This document shows, piece after piece, positions 54,501 through 62,050 of a stretch of DNA of 64,000 nt (the stretch's first letter is position 1; each line of letters opens with the position of its first letter). Source of the DNA: Escherichia coli (lineage in GTDB: Bacteria > Pseudomonadota > Gammaproteobacteria > Enterobacterales > Enterobacteriaceae); the NCBI RefSeq assembly GCF_030384885.1, contig NZ_CP128613.1, one strand, 5' to 3'. A program made the position numbers and the translations under genes. Under the pieces are notes generated by a model that worked only from the letters and a program-made list of their open reading frames with translations, was not told where the DNA came from and ran no database searches.

Positions 54501-54724
54501 ATGCAAAACCTGAACACCCTGTGGTATTCCCCTGGCATTATCACTTTCGCGATTAACCAACAGCCAGACCAGCAAACACGCCACTACAGGCACAGCAAAA
54601 TCCATCAGGCTTGCCACACCCCATGCGTGCGGCTCAAAGCCGCCCCGCCATGGCATATTAATCCGCTTACCATTTTCGAACAGCTGATTGGTTTAGTCCG
54701 GTGTTTCCCTGCTTGCACTTAAAA

Positions 54725-54820
54725 ATGAGCGGATGGGAAACTCTCGAAATGGTTCGTCGATATGCTCACCTTTCAGTCAGGCATTTCACCGCGCACGCGA
54801 GCAAAATCAAAGGCACATGA
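54725..54820 (+). pseudogene. Tyrosine-recombinase (phage integrase) C-terminal remnant
   Basis: Translates to [30 protein letters not shown], the conserved extreme C-terminus of phage integrases including the catalytic Tyr (RYAHL). Upstream sequence in the same frame has no integrase character. It is transcribed toward the tRNA fragment 46 nt away. Confidence 0.7.
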
Positions 54821-54865
54821 GGAGAATGTGGTTGACTTAAAAACGAGGAAACTTATTGATTTAAA

Positions 54866-54911
54866 TGGTGCCGATAATAGGAGTCGAACCTACGACCTTC
54901 GCATTACGAAT
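54866..54911 (-). other. thrW: 46-nt 3' fragment of tRNA-Thr(CGU) thrW: prophage attachment-site copy (attR of the prophage to the right)
   Basis: The reverse complement reads ATTCGTAATGCGAAGGTCGTAGGTTCGACTCCTATTATCGGCACCA. That is the anticodon loop to the CCA end of thrW as I recall it. The 5' half of the tRNA is absent. Confidence 0.8.
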
Positions 54912-55282
54912 TATAAGAATCCGTTTCTAATTCAAAGCATTACCACATCAACACTGCGCTCACACGTCCCACCACATCAAAACATGTAAAGCCTTGCAAG
55001 CCATTGTGAGGCCTTATGTGTCTCAGTTTTGTCCCACCTTGTATTACGACTTGCATAACCAATGAAGATAAACGTGACGACAAACGACGCAGCAGTCTTC
55101 TTTTCTTTCACACTTTCCCCACTCAGCATGCATACCTTCTACTATAACTGTAGTGAATGTCTGTTATGAGCGAGGAGCGGACTATCTTTCTGTGCTAAGC
55201 ACAGAAGTTTAAATTAATAAATAGAGATTAAGATGTTTATTGGTTACATTGATATTTATAATTTGATTGCCTTGAAATTCCT

Positions 55283-55322
55283 AAGCCGAATTCATGACGT
55301 CTTCATCACATGAATTCGGCTT
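55283..55322 (-). terminator. Perfect 14-bp inverted repeat 30 nt downstream of the 447-aa gene
   Basis: AAGCCGAATTCATG-N12-CATGAATTCGGCTT, seen directly. There is no clear U-tract, so terminator function is tentative. Confidence 0.45.
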
Positions 55323-55351
55323 ATGCATAATACTAAGTTGGTTTTATTAAG

Positions 55352-56695
55352 TCATTTCTTTGCCGCGCTTTTATTGCACTTCTTACAGCCTTCAATCAAT
55401 TTTTCAGTTATTATATAATAATAAGGAATGTAAATGTTTAACCCGCAAGTTTTAATCGAATCGAAAGCAAGAACTTTCACAATGGATTCTTCTCCATCTT
55501 TCTCCATTAGCAATATATCACTTAAAGGCAAATCATTAGGATTGTAAATCCTCACATCGCCAGGCTGTCTTTCATAGGCTTCGATGTCATCACCTGGTTG
55601 GCCATAGGCTAAATGAGTGGCTTTAATCCAGTTTATTGGTTCAGCATTTTGACACCAGGAGATTATTTTTTCTAATTTTTCAGGTGTGTAAGCTTTTACA
55701 TAATCTCCATGTTTTTCACATCTACCTAGTTCTGAAAAATGGCCCAGGGTGTATTCATAAGAATAATCACCAGCAGTCAATGGTAGTCTAAAGTATTGCT
55801 GAGGCAATGCCTTCTGGACTTTGGTTTTACTCAGCAAATTAAAGGTGATATCATAAAGTTGATATAGACAAACACCCTCTCGATCTGGATATCCATAAGG
55901 CTTGATGTCAGAAAGCATCTCAATATCAGAATTATAAACACTTGCATAATCATCACTTCCAAACATGAAAAAACCTTTTGATAGAATGAATATTGCATTA
56001 GGAAGAACGTTTTTTTCAAAATTCTGCGAGTGAGTTTTTATTTCTTGTACTATGTCCATCCAATCCATATCAGTATCATAGGCGAAGATAATTCCAAAAC
56101 CATTAGTCTGAATTCTCTCCTCTGAATGTATAAATATGTTCTGATTTATACCATGTTTCTTTAGTTTTTTGAATGAGCGGATATTTTCGAAAGCACTTTT
56201 CAGTTCTTTTTTTGTTAGTTTTGACTTAACCTGAATCACACCATAGCAGTACTCCACAGGTAAAACCTCAAAAATTTCCTGTCGCTGCATAAGCGAAAAT
56301 GAATTAAAAGCATCATAAAAAAGAATGTCGATTTCATTACTGAGATGTCCTGAGGTTGACGCTACACGGACACTTGATTTTGAGATGGCATAGCTTTGCG
56401 GTAAGAGTTTATTTTCATTGAAAAAGCATCTTAAGAGTTCCTCTCTGACAGTACCAACATCTCTTGGATGCTTAATATCTTTCGATATTTCAAAATCTTG
56501 AAGCATTTTCCTCTGTAAGTGAATGAACTCCCTTTCAAGACCATAAAATTCTTTATCTTTAGATCTCAGTTTGCTTGCACGAGAAACTTGATCGGATATC
56601 CATTCCTTTGTGCGAGACTCTCTCTCAGCAAAATCATCACGTTGTTTTTTTACAGCACCGGTCAAGCGTTTTCTTGTGTTTTCATTATCGGACAT
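55352..56695 (-). CDS. Orphan 447-aa protein with a restriction-endonuclease-like (PD-(D/E)xK-type) core; candidate defence gene
   Basis: A long ORF in visibly AT-rich DNA, with AAGG 8 nt before the ATG. No hydrophobic segments. Residues about 76-160 read HPRDVGTVREELLRCFF...GHLSNEIDILFYD...YGVIQVKSKL, which fits the helix-E / strand-D / (E/Q)xK layout. I recall the same layout from DUF6602-type proteins; this is unverified. Confidence 0.75.
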   Translation of the reverse strand: MSDNENTRKRLTGAVKKQRDDFAERESRTKEWISDQVSRASKLRSKDKEFYGLEREFIHLQRKMLQDFEISKDIKHPRDVGTVREELLRCFFNENKLLPQSYAISKSSVRVASTSGHLSNEIDILFYDAFNSFSLMQRQEIFEVLPVEYCYGVIQVKSKLTKKELKSAFENIRSFKKLKKHGINQNIFIHSEERIQTNGFGIIFAYDTDMDWMDIVQEIKTHSQNFEKNVLPNAIFILSKGFFMFGSDDYASVYNSDIEMLSDIKPYGYPDREGVCLYQLYDITFNLLSKTKVQKALPQQYFRLPLTAGDYSYEYTLGHFSELGRCEKHGDYVKAYTPEKLEKIISWCQNAEPINWIKATHLAYGQPGDDIEAYERQPGDVRIYNPNDLPLSDILLMEKDGEESIVKVLAFDSIKTCGLNIYIPYYYIITEKLIEGCKKCNKSAAKK

Positions 56696-57004
56696 AAATT
56701 AACCTTAAGTTGATAAGTTTTGTGGTGAATTTATAAAGCCTGAGGGATAAACATTTATAGTCTATAAGTTACTATTTATTTGAGATAGTAAGCCAATTTT
56801 ATTAGATGAAGAAACGTTCATAACCTCCTCAACTACGTTTCAATCGGCAACATCGGAGAAGTACACTTTGACAATATATAGCATATTGAAGCAGCTGTAA
56901 CTTAGAGCGCGTACACTCAAGATTTCCCGCTGCGGTGATGGCGGACGACTGCGTTTGATAACTCATTTCCCTCACCAACTATCGGACCTGTTCCTGATTG
57001 ATTA

Positions 57005-57215
57005 TCACATTATAATGTGAGCAATGTCCGCTCCTAGCACATAGCAGTTCTAGAGACAATGGCGTAAAGTCATGGAGAATCGGTGGGAGGATATTCAGTT
57101 TCATTCATGCCGAAATACGGTAAAATCTATAACAGATAGAAATCATTCAATATTCGCACTATCAGAAGCTGGCCAGCCAACCGCGCACGATTTTGCATAC
57201 GACATGCTACGGTTT
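57005..57215. repeat. Non-coding segment B, paralogous to 52845-53045
   Basis: See segment A. B begins at the palindrome TCACATTATAATGTGA (57005-57020) and ends at the stop codon of the pin remnant. Confidence 0.6.
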
Positions 57216-57556
57216 CATTTATCTCCGACCGGAAACTTCTTATACAGTGTCGATACACCAACATCATAGATGATCTCCACCTTCTGGCGAGGAACGCCTG
57301 ATGCAATTAATCGCCCGGCCTGCGCCCTTTGTTCTGGTGTAAGTTTGGGACGACGTCCACCAATTCGTCCCTGTGCGCGAGCAACTTCCAGTCCAGCTTT
57401 TGTTCGTTCAACAATCAGTTCTCGTTCCATTTCAGCCAGGGCACCCATCACATGAAAGAAAAAACGCCCCATCGGTGTGCTGGTATCAATAGCATCCGTC
57501 AGGCTGCGAAAATTAACGCCACGTTCGCGCAACTCCTCAACCAGAATGACCAGATG
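57215..57556 (-). pseudogene. pin: Pin/Gin/Hin-type serine DNA invertase, C-terminal two thirds only
   Basis: HLVILVEELRERGVNFRSLTDAIDTSTPMGRFFFHVMGALAEMERELIVERTKAGL...STLYKKFPVGDK aligns with Pin from about residue 75. The N-terminal catalytic Ser region is missing. Confidence 0.8.
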
Positions 57557-57814
57557 GACAAGCGTGCCGGGACCGGGTTTATTCAGCGCTTCAATCAGGC
57601 GATCGCGCTGGTCAAAGCAGTCATCTCCCACCACATAAGCTGTGATGGACGGGCGGAAAGTGACTTTTCCCAGATCTTCGGTATAGGGCTTGTCGCGGTT
57701 CGGGTATTCATGTGTTTCCACACGGCGACCGGTTCCCGCACTTTCTTCTTCAACCTTAAACGGCACACCTCGAAATGACGCATCCTGAAGCCTGTCTTTC
57801 CACGTCATATACAC
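57557..57814 (-). pseudogene. Mu N-like DNA circularisation (tail/baseplate) protein, N-terminal ~86 codons fused in frame to the pin remnant
   Basis: W.DRLQDASFRGVPF...HEYPNRDKPYTEDLGK...GDDCFDQRDRLIEALNKPGPGTLVH matches the DNA-circulation N-terminal domain pattern. The ORF continues directly into invertase sequence. Confidence 0.75.
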
Positions 57815-57869: not shown

Positions 57870-58400
57870 TTAGCGAGTCAGAAACAACGAATCTTTATAC
57901 TTTTGCTGTTGTTCATTTAAATACTTAGCTGTTTCATCGCTGGCAAATGGAAATATTACCGTATTTTTAGGCATGGTAATTTCTTTTTTGTCCAGCGTCA
58001 GAGTAAACATAGGAACATACTGAGCAGAGTAACGCACCGCAGAAACGAGCTCTAGTTTAGACTCTTCAATAACACTTAAATTATCCAGGCTAACTTTCTC
58101 TTCATCTTTTTTCTTTGACGCATTTAAAGTTTTTATTACTTTATTTAATTTCTCCTGAAAATCCTCCTTAAAGTTTTCAGGATTGCCGTCGACAACAAGA
58201 ATCTGTTCACCCTGATTATCTGGAAAAATAATCTTTGCACTTATCAATTTATTTTCTTTATAAACATCACCAAGTTTTATGGCTCCTCCAGATAACTGAA
58301 TAATATGTTCATCTTTAAAGGAGATGTTGCCAGAGATTATGAGAGATGAAAAAATAGCCGCTGCTCCAAGAATTACACTTGCTGTGATATAGCCTTTCAT
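57870..58400 (-). CDS. Membrane-anchored 176-aa protein of unknown function (prophage moron)
   Basis: AT-rich ORF with one N-terminal hydrophobic helix (ITASVILGAAAIFSSLIISG) and a Lys/Glu-rich soluble domain. It has its own terminator and is inserted between tail-gene remnants. Confidence 0.65.
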   Translation of the reverse strand: MKGYITASVILGAAAIFSSLIISGNISFKDEHIIQLSGGAIKLGDVYKENKLISAKIIFPDNQGEQILVVDGNPENFKEDFQEKLNKVIKTLNASKKKDEEKVSLDNLSVIEESKLELVSAVRYSAQYVPMFTLTLDKKEITMPKNTVIFPFASDETAKYLNEQQQKYKDSLFLTR

Positions 58401-58491
58401 TTTTCGCCTATTAACATTTTTCTAAATGTGCATTAATTCTATCACTCTATTTATGACTTACAACCAGCAATACATGTGAGGGGAATCCTGG

Positions 58492-58729
58492 CTACCAAAA
58501 TCGGGTATAGCCAACATCGTGATTTATATCAATGCCACTGGAGCGTGTTTCCGTAACCCGCATACCTGGTGGCATATTTATAAATGATACCTTGATCTCA
58601 CCATCAACTTTTGGCGCGGTAGCTTTATTAATCATGAAGGGATTCGGGCCTGTGGCATCGGAGGCGTTGTTTGCCTGAGCCGGATCCACCGCCGGATAAG
58701 GAGTGTATCCCCGTGCCGGTATTCCCGTC
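58492..58729 (-). pseudogene. Phage tail protein C-terminal remnant (possibly tape measure)
   Basis: The frame ...YTPYPAVDPAQANNASDATGPNPFMINKATAPKVDGEIKVSFINMPPGMRVTETRSSGIDINHDVGYTRFW* ends upstream of the Mu N-like gene, where Mu-type tails place the tape-measure 3' end. The assignment is positional only. Confidence 0.3.
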
Positions 58730-59623
58730 TTCGATATTGTTGAAGGTGGCGCGATCGGTGTTCTGCACCATGTGCAACGGCACCCGGAACAGACGACAGA
58801 TTTCTTCAAGCTGAAACTTGCGGGTTTCCAGGAACTGGCTGTCCTCGGCGTTCAGCGCCATCGACTTCCAGTCCAGCCCCATCTCAAGGATCATCGGGCG
58901 GTGAGCATTACCAAGCCCGGTGTGACGCTCCTCAAAATCTTTCTTCAGGCGCTCATAAGCCTGATCCGACAGCGTCTGTTCTGTACGCAACACACCCGAC
59001 GTCACCGCGCCATTGCTGAACAGTCTGGCCCCGTGCTCTTCGGTCGCAGCTGCCAGCGATATTGCCTCACGGGCATAGGCGATGGGATTCAGTCCCACCA
59101 GACCGTCCAGCGTCAGCGTGCGCACATGCCAGATATCCTCCTGGCTCAGTACATCCGTGGAGCCATCCGGGAATGTGACCTGATAGACCGGCTCCCAGCT
59201 ACTGTTAAGCTTCGGTACCACACAGCCGGGATCGACGGGCAGCAGTTCAGCCACTTCGCCAAATGCTTTCACTTTGTAGGCGTAAAAGTTTCCCCGCAGG
59301 CACAGACAGGTGACCACCAGCTCCCAGAACTCCTGCGGCGTCATATAGCCATTGGGATGCGTGGAGATCAGCTTATGCAGACGTTCGCCAGTGGCTCTCT
59401 GCTTCAGGCTGCCGTTCAGGTGATACAGGTTGCAGGGCAACATCCCGACCGACTCCGCCAGCACCCTGACACAGGAAAAAACCGCCGTCAGTCGCATGGC
59501 CCGCTGGCTGCTGATCTGCTTTCCGGTATAGGTGTCGTAGGACAACCCGATGGCATCCGCCAGCTCTGCTGGCGTGGTCACCGGTGCGTCACTTTTTCGT
59601 TGAAATAATCCCGAAAAGAACAC
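58730..59623 (-). pseudogene. HK97-family portal protein, truncated after about 298 codons
   Basis: Portal-like sequence runs up to ...RVPLHMVQNTDRATFNNIE. The frame then runs into unrelated sequence from another gene in a different frame. Confidence 0.75.
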
Positions 59624-59816: not shown

Positions 59817-61550
59817 TTAAAGCGAGCGGATCCCGTAGGACTCAATGTGGTCAGACAGCGTGTCTTCTTTCTCGTACAGCATGGCTCTGCCAACCGCCAT
59901 AATCAGCGCAACTGCACCATCGATTTTGTTTTCCGCCTGCTCTTTGACGGGTTTCACCACATCATCGTTACCCGGAATGGTTTTGCCGACCACGTTGCCG
60001 ATACACCAGGTCATGATGGGATTGCCGTCATGATGAAAGCGCCCCGATTCAATTGCCGCTTCCAGCTCTTTCATCGGGTCGGACATGTTGGTGTAGTTCT
60101 GAATGATAGTGATGGGGTTCAGGTCTTCATCAGCAAGGTCATGTGACAACCCGGTCGCCCCGAAGGGGTCGATGGGTGACTCACTGACCGGGCTGATTTT
60201 GTTCGCCGCTTTGGCCTCCTCGAGGATGTAGCGATAATCCACCTCCGCACCATCGGTAACGGTCAGAACGCCCATTTCCACCCATTTCTGAAAGCGTTCG
60301 GCTGTCCGTCGATCTTCATTTTTCTCGACGCTGTACACCGTGTCATACGGTACCCAGAAACGCGGGGCCACACTGTAGTAATGCGTTTTACCGTCAATCT
60401 CGCGGGTATAAAGTCGCGCCATGCTGTTCATATCCAGCTTACGCGCCAGGTCAAAGGCCAGAATGCACGGCTGCCCCTCGAACTGCTCAAGAGTCAGTGA
60501 TTTATCCTCGCATCTCTGCCAGCTCACCAGGTTGAAATACGCCGAACGCGCCGACACCCAGATATTGAGGTGTTTTGTTTTAAAGACGTTTGCCAGACGG
60601 GCGTTATTTTTCGCACGTTGCTGCTGGCTTAACAAAAACTCGCGATAAACCGACACACCGATATTCGGGTTAGCTTTTTCAAGTACCTGCGGGTCGGTCC
60701 AGTCGTCGCCTTCGTCAACGGTATAGATGATCCCGAACAGTTCATCGTTGGGCACCGAGCCGTTGAGCATCTCGATGACTTCCCGCCGTTTGTCGTAGCA
60801 CGGCCCCTCAATGTTGTACCCGGCGGTGGTAATGGCCCACATCAGTGGCTGGCGTCGCGCCCCCATCCCGGTAAGCATCGTGGTGTAAAGCGCATCTGTG
60901 GCGTGCTCGTGATATTCATCCACCACCGCACAGTGGGGTGATGAACCATCACCGGGGTTACCGATCAGCGGTTCAAACCGCGCACCATCCTCCGGACGGT
61001 TCATGTTTGAGGCGTTAACCTCAATCCCGAACGCTTCCGTCAGCATGGGTGTGCGTTTACACATCAGTCGTGCCGGACGAAAGACTTCCCATGCCTGTTT
61101 CTCCGTCGTGGCACCGGAATACACTTCCGCGCCGAACTCGTTATCACAGGCAAAACAATACAGGGCGACACCGGCAGAGATTGCCGATTTGCCGTTCTTA
61201 CGGGGGATTTCGGTATACACCTCACGGAAGCGGCGCAGCCGGGAGCCTTTATTGACCCAGCCAAACGCGCAGCAGATCACAAAGAGCTGCCACGGCTCCA
61301 GCGTGATGGGCATCCTCTTAAATGCCCACTCACCCTTGGTGTGCGGCAACAGCTGAATAAATTTCGCGGCCCGTTCAGCCAGGTCCTTGTCGAAGCGGTA
61401 ACGAAACGACTTACTTTTTTCCTCCATCAGGTCATCAAGATGGCGCTGGCAGGCCTGAATCACAAACTGGCAGGCCACAATCTTTCCGTGCACGACATCA
61501 CGGGCATACTGATTGGCAGCATTTACGTTGGGGTAAGATTTCCGGCTCAT
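59817..61550 (-). CDS. Terminase large subunit
   Basis: 577-aa ORF with an ATPase Walker A-like motif (PRKNGKS) and a nuclease C-terminal domain. Located between terS and the portal gene. Confidence 0.88.
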
Positions 61551-62050
61551 GATTCGATGATTTTCAGAAACGGGTTAGTGGCTTTCTTCTGCCCCGCCAG
61601 GCCAATCAGACGCTGGCGGCTGCTGGGGTCGAGTCCGAGCATTGCCCCCGTACTGCTCATCTCGGACTCCTGTTCTTTTTTGGCGGTCAGCTCCGGATTT
61701 TTGACCATACCGCCCATTGCACCGGTGATGGTGTTGCCCTGTCTGGCAATATTTTTCACGGCACGTCGCCAGAACTCGTAGGCCACGCACCACCGCTCAA
61801 GCACCGCGAGGTCAGTCACGCACAGCAGGCCCTGACCGCAGAGTTCTTTAGTTGTCAGTTGCCACATGATCGTGGCGAGAGGGAGATCTTCTTCAGCGAA
61901 CCACTCCGGTGGCTCAACACCTTTGATGGGCGTAAAAACAGGTTCATCTTTATTCAGGGCTCGCTTGCCGGGGTTTCCGGCCAGCGCCTTGCGCGCCGTT
62001 GGCTTGGGGCGACGCCCGGAACGCCCCGCCGTTCCAGCCATATGCGGCAC
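61547..62050 (-). CDS. Terminase small subunit (P27 family)
   Basis: 167-aa ORF whose N-terminus [29 protein letters not shown] is typical of the P27-family small terminase. It overlaps terL by 4 nt. Confidence 0.8.

Follow-up and report, generated by a model that had tools for sequence, protein, structure and literature searches.

A predicted NucC-like DUF6602 nuclease with a putative C-terminal zinc domain in an arm-bounded prophage cassette of Escherichia coli

The end of a decayed prophage in Escherichia coli carries an intact gene whose product is best read as a stand-alone DNA endonuclease, predicted to belong to the NucC (DUF6602) branch of the PD-(D/E)xK superfamily. The gene lies in a stretch of 64,000 nucleotides from contig NZ_CP128613.1 (the window), where our survey of open reading frames (ORFs) places it at 55352-56695 on the minus strand, with an ATG start and 447 codons before the stop. 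It is the sole cargo gene of a 1887-bp unit bounded by short inverted arms, and the best reading of this cassette type is that it populates accessory-gene hotspots of temperate enterobacterial phages. We lean towards a function in single-gene phage defence, exerted by a regulated NucC-type nuclease that would work independently of a cyclase, a role that we infer from genomic context and homology.

Defence by a single DUF6602 gene is already known from Damona, which has been validated (bioRxiv 10.1101/2024.07.02.601686), and the word ‘undescribed’ that the initial annotation attached to the system was therefore too strong. New here are the absence of a cyclase and the fusion to a novel, putative zinc domain. 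The gene and its parts are as follows.

55352..56695, minus strand: coding sequence, 447 amino acids (aa) plus stop, DUF6602 / NucC-like nuclease with C-terminal zinc domain (ORF, Pfam, PADLOC and 330 homologs)
56546..56695, minus strand: residues 1-50, charged N-terminal extension, mainly one long helix (13-45) in the AlphaFold2 (AF2) secondary structure; isoelectric point 9.9
55811..56545, minus strand: residues 51-295, complete NucC-type PD-(D/E)xK domain; active-site candidates E85, E121, D123, E148, Q155 and K157
55355..55810, minus strand: residues 296-447, family-specific C-terminal domain with C326-x2-H329 and C437-x2-C440 (putative zinc site) and a Lys-rich tail

The ORF is a real gene rather than a product of chance, because it extends over 1344 nt in DNA of 35% G+C and has 330 full-length homologs at 47-98% identity. 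Its G+C content is 35.4% (30% at third codon positions), versus 48.7% in positions 1-54000 of the window, and it is flanked by non-coding DNA, with 439 nt (54913-55351) on the side of a tRNA fragment, presumably from thrW, and 519 nt (56696-57214) on the side of a truncated invertase gene. The homologs measure ~420-470 aa and come from hosts that include Escherichia, Klebsiella, Yersinia, Serratia, Erwinia, Citrobacter, Pseudomonas, Burkholderia, Rhizobium and Acetobacter. Their annotation is DUF6602 or hypothetical only, and the identical protein is listed at NCBI on 105 contigs as ‘DUF6602 domain-containing protein [Escherichia coli]’. What the initial annotation had read directly from the letters was borne out, namely the ORF and its flanks, the AT-richness, the Shine-Dalgarno sequence, a 14-bp inverted repeat (29 nt past the stop), the charged N-terminus and the lack of transmembrane segments (the highest Kyte-Doolittle mean over 19 residues is 1.2).

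The nuclease domain and the C-terminal domain

Membership of DUF6602, as proposed in the initial annotation, is supported by Pfam PF20247, which residues 69-178 match at E=4.6e-23 and 81.5 bits (gathering cut-off 27), across positions 2-104 of its 104. With PADLOC, the Cas-associated PD_DExK profile matches at 2e-27 and two NucC effector profiles match residues 42-247 at 3e-17 and 1.7e-16, and searches of NCBIfam and PHROGs with the 447-aa protein returned nothing informative. Against the PDB, NucC is matched at 7e-9 from the single sequence and at 3e-12 from the family profile, with 17% sequence identity. A structure comparison with NucC aligns 222 of 240 residues, including the embellishments that build its pocket, and in the predicted structure residues ~50-295 adopt the whole NucC fold. 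The nearest structures after NucC are the type II restriction endonucleases (REases) Bse634I, Kpn2I and NgoMIV. The kinship with restriction endonucleases that had been proposed thus holds for the fold, but the closest relative is specifically NucC and no generic restriction enzyme.

A role in O-antigen modification or as a phage structural protein, which had been raised as a competing assignment, was rejected. Pfam, NCBIfam and PHROGs contain no glycosyltransferase, acetyltransferase or other acyltransferase and no structural family that matches the protein, the fold search likewise gives no transferase or structural family, and the viral structures of BFVD yield no match to it; the lack of transmembrane segments also speaks against such a role.

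NucC is defined by an IDx30EAK active site (D73, E104 and K106), a three-fold pocket for cyclic triadenylate (cA3) formed by R53, Y81 and T226/V227, a gate loop latched by H136/Y141, activation from trimer to hexamer, and a genomic context with a cGAS/DncV-like nucleotidyltransferase (CD-NTase) or a type III CRISPR (clustered regularly interspaced short palindromic repeats) system; its cleavage is sequence-unspecific, and trimers have to pair before it becomes active (Lau et al., bioRxiv 10.1101/694703). Profile alignments equate D73, E104, K106, R53 and Y81 of NucC with D123, Q155, K157, S101 and N131 of the focal protein. Conservation at these and other positions was counted in an alignment of 148 family members, which reaches down to 28% identity.

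The helix Glu, the strand Asp and the (D/E/Q)xK Lys of the REase core are all present, which assigns the protein to the PD-(D/E)xK superfamily. None of the 148 members departs from the three residues concerned, E85, D123 and K157, in agreement with the helix-E, strand-D, (Q)xK layout described in the initial annotation. That description had named D123, D128, Q155 and K157, all of which are present. As key residues D123 and K157 stand, but D128 is not essential, the position being occupied among distant members by D (26), N (6), A (1) and E (1).

The literal NucC motif IDx30EAK is broken, with Q155 taking the place of E104. Position 155 is Q in 140 of the 148 members and E in six, and these six are exactly the members that have Q121. 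The pair (121,155) consequently reads E/Q in 139 members and Q/E in 6, with other combinations in 3 (one of them E/S), and NucC itself reads Q-I-D...E-A-K. Because exactly one acid is found at 121 or 155 in 146 of the 148 members, a working metal site with a migrated carboxylate can be argued. Carboxylate migration of this type is known in the Cfr10I/NgoMIV group. The covariation shows the predicted second acid of the active site to be E121, moved from the ExK position now held by Q155, and nuclease function is probably kept despite the broken literal motif.

The positions that serve cA3 binding in NucC are altered as well. Position 131, the equivalent of Y81, is D, N or E in 144 members and S, G or T in the other four, and is aromatic in none. 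Position 101, the equivalent of R53, is Ser in the window's clade and R or K in 134 of the 148 members. No other part of the alignment varies as much as the gate-loop segment (residues 181-198), in which neither His nor Tyr is conserved; the model gives residues 184-191 a predicted local distance difference test (pLDDT) score below 50. Judged from the alignment, the family is without the cA3-stacking tyrosine and the gate-loop latch of NucC. Its genomic setting also differs from that of NucC, which is an operon of the cyclic-oligonucleotide-based antiphage signalling system (CBASS) or a type III CRISPR locus. On the grounds of the broken motif, the missing cA3 and gate features and the absence of a conserved cyclase or CRISPR context, we class the 447-aa protein as NucC-like in fold and probably also in chemistry, but not as a NucC.

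The C-terminal domain is a constant part of the family's proteins and appears to be peculiar to them. Residues 296-447 match only 85 of 1.84 billion representative proteins (phmmer), and essentially all of these matches are the C-terminal part of a 400-470-aa protein or a fragment of one. Pfam holds no family for the domain at E values up to 10, and a fold search of the PDB with it found no neighbour. The initial annotation had suggested that its RCEKH (CxxH) and GCKKC (CxxC) pairs could bind zinc, which is plausible given that the ligands are invariant across the family: C326, H329 and C437 are found in 148 of 148 members, and C440 in 147, the remaining sequence being gapped there. In the AF2 secondary structure a beta-hairpin carries the first pair, and the last helix begins at the second. 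Cys/His pairs placed on a beta-hairpin and a helix start are typical of a structural zinc site, and C326/H329/C437/C440 plausibly form one. The N-terminal extension is poorly conserved, being shorter in some members and having other N-terminal residues in others.

Neighbourhoods of the relatives and the proposed mode of action

The surroundings of homologs were inspected at 23 loci (L003-L025) from reference genomes of Gamma-, Beta- and Alphaproteobacteria, a Negativicute and an Acidobacterium. An all-against-all BLAST of the neighbours at these loci revealed no recurring neighbour family, no conserved partner and no antitoxin-like gene, consistent with the stand-alone gene that had been claimed. 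Most of the homologs lie in defence islands. Encoded within three genes of them are Avs3, two complete type I CBASS, a type II restriction-modification system, ThsA and a DpdE/ZorD-like helicase, together with a CARF deaminase and LmuA-like, IetS-like and RES-domain proteins; JetA/JetB matches also occur among the neighbours, assigned to no locus. An association of the homologs with defence genes had been put forward as a check on the defence proposal, and these neighbourhoods are indeed rich in them. Two relatives are pseudogenes, one split by a frameshift on a Pseudomonas silvicola megaplasmid (L007, 10190-11371) and one truncated, in Stutzerimonas xanthomarina, where it adjoins the Thoeris gene ThsA (L025, 10001-10862).

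The gene itself is rare, being carried by ~4 of 5426 complete E. coli genomes. In four complete genomes the gene occupies the interval from pinE to the prophage end in an e14/SfV-like element whose tail genes are of Mu type, and its annotation there says no more than ‘DUF6602 domain-containing protein’ or hypothetical. An integrase/AlpA/MobA island with Drt5 holds a second E. coli allele, with 68% identity, and a 46%-identical copy is found on fifteen Vibrio parahaemolyticus plasmids. Three IMG/VR prophage contigs carry the full-length gene, and three different prophage positions are occupied overall.

At two of the 23 loci, the homolog directly follows, in the same orientation, the genes for a CBASS cyclase and an effector with two transmembrane segments (2TM), the cyclases and effectors being of different PADLOC families (L008, 8283-11380, Pseudomonas nitroreducens; L014, 8309-11305, Lucifera butyrica). 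Because each cyclase is followed by its own 2TM effector, both belong to complete type I CBASS, and the homolog was ruled out as their effector; the adjacency could reflect island clustering or a functional link. Such loci, the CARF-deaminase neighbour at one locus, the complete NucC fold with its pocket embellishments and the frequent R or K at the R53 position would all suit an effector that acts in trans, responding to a nucleotide of phage origin or to cyclic oligonucleotides that a CBASS or type III CRISPR system makes elsewhere in the genome. We regard this as distinctly improbable. The remaining 21 loci are without a cyclase within three genes, no member has an aromatic residue at the Y81 position, the latch is not conserved, and R53 has become Ser in the window's clade. 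Moreover, the ORF survey of the window shows nothing like a cyclase or a type III CRISPR locus, with defence profiles run only on the focal protein and a 176-aa ORF.

The only methyltransferase near a homolog is at L009, where it accompanies its own EcoRII-like REase, and the window's cassette holds none. A solitary nuclease of REase fold, with no methyltransferase partner at 22 of 23 loci, could alternatively be a constitutively competent restriction nuclease, either type IV-like (modification-dependent) or structure-specific. Its zinc domain would read a feature that phage DNA has and host DNA lacks, such as modified bases or unusual ends, and neither a switch nor cell death would be needed. 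The rank of type II REases as the nearest structures after NucC accords with this possibility, as do the type IV REases among the cargo of the same cassette family and the extra domain, whose zinc site and Lys-rich tail could bind DNA. We nevertheless consider it unlikely.

For the regulated, cyclase-independent nuclease that we favour, a mode of action can be sketched. Because a NucC-type nuclease is unspecific, and neither a methyltransferase nor an immunity gene accompanies the family, the enzyme is likely to be latent in the uninfected cell. By analogy with NucC, the latent state would be a trimer with unpaired active sites. Infection would switch the nuclease on through the C-terminal zinc domain, which would act as a sensor or assembly switch in place of the cyclic-trinucleotide pocket, possibly with assistance from the N-terminal helix. 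Activation would lead to higher-order assembly and double-strand DNA cleavage, the outcome being abortive infection or destruction of the phage DNA.

NucC is the textbook example of a nuclease restrained by a cyclic trinucleotide, and a widespread relative of the same fold, without the cyclase, the stacking tyrosine and the latch but with a private, putative zinc domain, raises the question of how the killing module is rewired. The family would offer a compact one-gene system in which to study a change of trigger, and it is a good candidate for defence-system catalogues.

The arm-bounded cassette and its surroundings

The boundaries of the unit that carries the gene are marked by two inverted arms.

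55161..57047, no strand assigned: whole cargo cassette, 1887 bp, comprising arm A, hairpin, gene, upstream ORF, 5′ region and arm B; homology to relatives ends inside the arms
55161..55182, plus strand: cassette arm ‘A’ CTGTTATGAGCGAGGAGCGGAC, left end of the mobile unit, consensus score 22/22
57026..57047, minus strand: cassette arm ‘B’ CTGCTATGTGCTAGGAGCGGAC, right end, in the opposite orientation to arm A, consensus score 22/22

Elsewhere in the window a degenerate arm consensus peaks at 17, versus 22/22 for both arms, and the 10-nt arm core AGGAGCGGAC is present at two places only in the 64 kb, where 0.03 occurrences are expected. Nucleotide similarity to loci L035 (98%) and L036 (87%) spans only 55159/55167 to 57040, with the gene situated in a nin-like region in L035 and between the Q antiterminator and the lysis genes in L036. 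The reverse pattern is seen with E. coli 2014C-3075 (L002, 8483-10705), in which a retron Ec67-type reverse transcriptase (RT)/endonuclease with the same arms fills the slot that corresponds to window positions 55182-57026, and similarity is restricted to the arms and the DNA outside them (outside 55181 and 57022). The arms are shared by all three cassettes, those of L035, L036 and the retron strain, and the DNA beyond them is unrelated. The presence of the retron at exactly the same place confirms the suggestion that this prophage end is a cargo slot. A GIY-YIG gene is inserted between the retron cassette and pinE in L002.

The arms are widespread. In addition to the window, L035, L036, L002, L158 and L159, they occur at at least 120 loci of IMG/VR (L038-L157). 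At a stringent score of ≥19/22, the matches listed contain 194 arms and 47 distinct inward-facing pairs, 465-3987 bp apart (median 1615). Each of these 47 pairs, again among the matches listed, joins one ‘A’ arm (..TGAGCGAGG..) to one ‘B’ arm (..TGTGCCAGG..), for which the binomial p is 7e-15. The 22-nt inverted arms are thus heterotypic (A ..TGAGCGAGGAGCGGAC, B ..TGTGCCAGGAGCGGAC), and they bound 0.5-4 kb of AT-rich cargo in P2-like, lambdoid and e14/SfV-like prophages. Also enclosed by these arms are the classical P2 Z/fun hotspot, which lies between G and FI, and, at that site in phage 899, a two-cassette array. Where cassettes adjoin, the back-to-back arms are 22 nt apart in 15 of 18 cases among the matches listed, and the 66-nt junction of arm, spacer and arm folds as a long hairpin (-24.8 kcal/mol, z -6.9). 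A proposal that each arm folds as its own hairpin was dropped; some copies reach -8.2 kcal/mol, and the window's arms only -0.7 and -0.9 kcal/mol.

The AT-rich cargo contains, among the matches listed, at least 83 ORFs of at least 100 aa in at least 68 unrelated families. Included are SduA (Shedu, 8e-166), PD-T7-1 (6e-157), PD-T4-5, PD-T7-5, PD-T4-3 and PDC-S35, along with type IV REases, HNH effectors and TIR and HEPN proteins. Given the cassette boundaries and shared arms, the gene is an autonomous, exchangeable unit in the company of validated anti-phage genes.

An entirely different reading is that the protein is no immunity factor but a selfish or housekeeping nuclease, such as a cassette transposase or homing nuclease, an addiction module, or an RmuC-like recombination or repair enzyme. 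PD-(D/E)xK enzymes can serve as transposase subunits or homing enzymes, and the gene is the sole large ORF in a unit that has 22-nt inverted terminal arms and is found at three phage positions. A distant relationship between DUF6602 and RmuC has also been noted (Darracq et al., bioRxiv 10.1101/2024.07.02.601686). However, the same arms surround at least 68 unrelated cargo families, and the DUF6602 nuclease therefore cannot mobilise them, which rules it out as the cassette's own transposase. No other arm-bounded cassette among the matches listed has a DUF6602 protein, no target-site duplication is seen at the cassette ends, the neighbours at the 23 loci include no antitoxin-like partner, and most homologs reside in defence islands. 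We assign very little probability to this reading.

Several points weigh against the defence role that we favour. The literal NucC/PD-ExK motif is broken at Q155, and the predicted catalysis rests on covariation. Some binding of a phosphate ligand may persist in the family at large, because R or K occupies the R53 position in 134 of 148 members, and a homolog directly follows a CBASS cyclase and 2TM effector at two of 23 loci. The full-length gene is present in 0 of 50,697 isolated phage genomes. Cassette membership alone is no proof of defence, because some arm-bounded cargo encodes arsenic resistance, EAL or LysR proteins. Finally, the case for defence is built from context and homology, in a family known here from sequences. 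An argument that had been made in favour of the role, that an intact gene in a decayed prophage reflects host-level selection, is weak. The decay is uninformative about selection because the gene is too young, its orthologue in L001 (the one E. coli orthologue compared) differing by one codon and standing beside an intact pinE and tail module.

A broader proposal joins the two lines of evidence, and as a whole we hold it only tentatively and with considerable doubt. Its first part is that a nuclease of NucC fold has been freed from cyclic-oligonucleotide control and equipped with a built-in, zinc-stapled sensor of unseen fold, constituting a defence family apart from Damona and from the CBASS and CRISPR effectors. 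Its second part is that the A/B-arm cassettes are a previously unremarked mobile unit that shuttles defence genes among P2-like, lambdoid and e14/SfV-like hotspots. If true, this would point to a dedicated mechanism, integron-like or like that of repetitive extragenic palindromic (REP) elements, for exchanging phage-borne immunity genes. The arms are possibly weightier than the gene, and the arm-bounded cassette system is the more surprising lead. As a general signature of temperate-coliphage cargo, they would allow unknown defence genes to be delimited and collected by sequence, and they may explain the swapping of content among P2, lambdoid and e14-type hotspots.

Other features of the cassette and of the neighbouring prophage are listed below.

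56703..56706, minus strand: Shine-Dalgarno-like AAGG, 7 nt 5′ of the ATG, read in the sequence
55277..55328, minus strand: terminator-like hairpin, 29 nt 3′ of the stop, with a perfect 14-bp stem (55283-55296 / 55309-55322)
56762..56821, minus strand: 19-codon upstream ORF MNVSSSNKIGLLSQINSNL, 66 nt 5′ of the main start, with a strong Shine-Dalgarno sequence GAGGAGG at 56824-56830
54867..54912, minus strand: 46-nt 3′ fragment of a tRNA, a prophage attachment-site remnant (partial Rfam tRNA match; no whole tRNA)
57215..57555, minus strand: 3′ two-thirds of the pin invertase gene, without the N-terminal catalytic region, fused at 57555/57556 to the start of a DNA circularization gene

As RNA, the downstream hairpin has a folding energy of -22.5 kcal/mol (z = -4.1), and 0 of 200 shuffles are equally stable. 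It lacks a U-tract and is therefore no textbook intrinsic terminator, and a terminator scan did not call it. We claim no promoter for the gene because a sigma-70 scan gave 7 matches, compared with 7.6 in shuffles. An Rfam search of the cassette returned nothing credible. The start and Shine-Dalgarno sequence of the 19-codon upstream ORF are kept in L001, L035 and L036 (GAGGTGG in L036) and its peptide diverges; ORFs of 16-17 codons also lie ~100-125 nt upstream in more distant homologs. This ORF may encode a leader peptide or may be a chance occurrence in AT-rich DNA, its status being uncertain.

The tRNA fragment, presumably from thrW, gives a partial Rfam match over the T-arm and acceptor (E=0.11, below the gathering threshold), and ARAGORN finds no whole tRNA anywhere in the window. 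Of 5426 E. coli genomes, 5017 have the 54 bases at this site. Adjoining the fragment is an integrase gene's 3′ end (~54700-54860, plus strand; labelled an integrase fragment in L002), which suggests remains of an older element at the same attachment (att) site. Relative to L001, the paoABCD-yagP block is absent between yagU and the prophage end.

On the other side of the cassette, the invertase described as dead in the initial annotation is indeed so. The ORF at 57215-57814 (minus strand) is an in-frame fusion of the N-terminus of a phage DNA circularization protein with the C-terminal ~113 aa of Pin, and the deletion, with its joint at 57555/57556, accounts for the loss of the tail-fibre and baseplate genes, which intact relatives (L001) have between the two. 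A second internal deletion, at ~58490-59623 (minus strand), seemingly connects the tape-measure gene (C-terminal end) with the portal gene (middle); a 331-aa ORF there (58628-59623) has a portal-like start and an out-of-frame end, and the terminase genes (59817-62050) are intact. Within the tail module, between the tape-measure and DNA circularization genes, lies the 176-aa ORF (57870-58400, minus strand; 34% G+C), which has an N-terminal hydrophobic segment and is followed by a strong hairpin. It is a ‘hypothetical protein’ kept in many E. coli prophages, has no PADLOC match and is possibly a moron; it was ruled out as a second arm-bounded cassette, having no arms.

Comparison with known systems

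Damona, an anti-phage cassette with one DUF6602 gene from the chromosomal integron of Vibrio cholerae, is protective in experiments. It too matches Cas PD_DExK and CBASS endonuclease profiles, its homologs are often found in prophages, and all systems of that study are stressed as small (Darracq et al., bioRxiv 10.1101/2024.07.02.601686). Damona and the focal gene have in common a single gene, a DUF6602 domain and a small mobile cassette. The C-terminal domain of the 447-aa family is confined to ~85 representative clusters. Among the named relatives of the 447-aa family there is no V. cholerae or Acinetobacter member, and a homolog search from an Acinetobacter DUF6602 protein leads to a separate 281-aa subfamily with no V. 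cholerae entry. Compared with Damona by its description rather than by its sequence, the 447-aa family is probably a sister subfamily within DUF6602.

Other DUF6602 subfamilies share a nuclease domain that is 25-31% identical over residues ~53-250, are without the C-terminal domain, and are encoded on plasmids or in defence islands beside Abi, SIR2 and TIR genes. They appear as two-gene arrangements, whereas the 447-aa family is a single fused protein. On plasmid pA2503 of Acinetobacter baumannii (L032, 2995-4172), for example, a 281-aa nuclease gene is followed after a 2-nt gap by a gene for a 109-aa SEC-C zinc protein and adjoins an Abi gene. On a V. parahaemolyticus plasmid (L033, 2091-4080), a gene for the nucleoid protein YejK precedes that of a 327-aa nuclease, with SIR2 and TIR genes nearby. 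In Pseudogulbenkiania (L015, 4980-6002), a 340-aa DUF6602 paralogue lies 4 kb from a 456-aa homolog. DUF6602 nucleases may repeatedly have zinc modules as companions. By hhalign, the C-terminal domain and the SEC-C partner of the 281-aa subfamily are not homologous (probability 1.7%).

NucC itself (PDB 6p7p, 6uxf and 7zgv; CBASS type III / type III CRISPR) is activated by cA3, whereas the focal gene has no linked cyclase or CRISPR locus. The focal protein is also ~200 residues longer; its N-terminal helix (50 residues) and its putative C-terminal zinc domain (150 residues) are both foreign to NucC. To the type IIP/IIF REases (the Bse634I / Cfr10I / NgoMIV / SgrAI group) the structural resemblance is far weaker than to NucC, and unlike these enzymes the focal gene is accompanied by no cognate methyltransferase and no evidence of sequence specificity.

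At the level of the cassette, the arms are not mentioned in a study of P2-like anti-phage hotspots (Rousset et al. 2022, PMC9122126), in the iLund4u preprint or in the literature searched by sequence; older P2 literature may describe them. The hotspots of that study (Z/fun and old/tin) likewise have variable, AT-rich cargo of one to a few genes, placed at a fixed phage site and exchanged between phages. They belong to P2, however, whereas the window's slot is that of an e14/SfV-like prophage, between pin and the att site.

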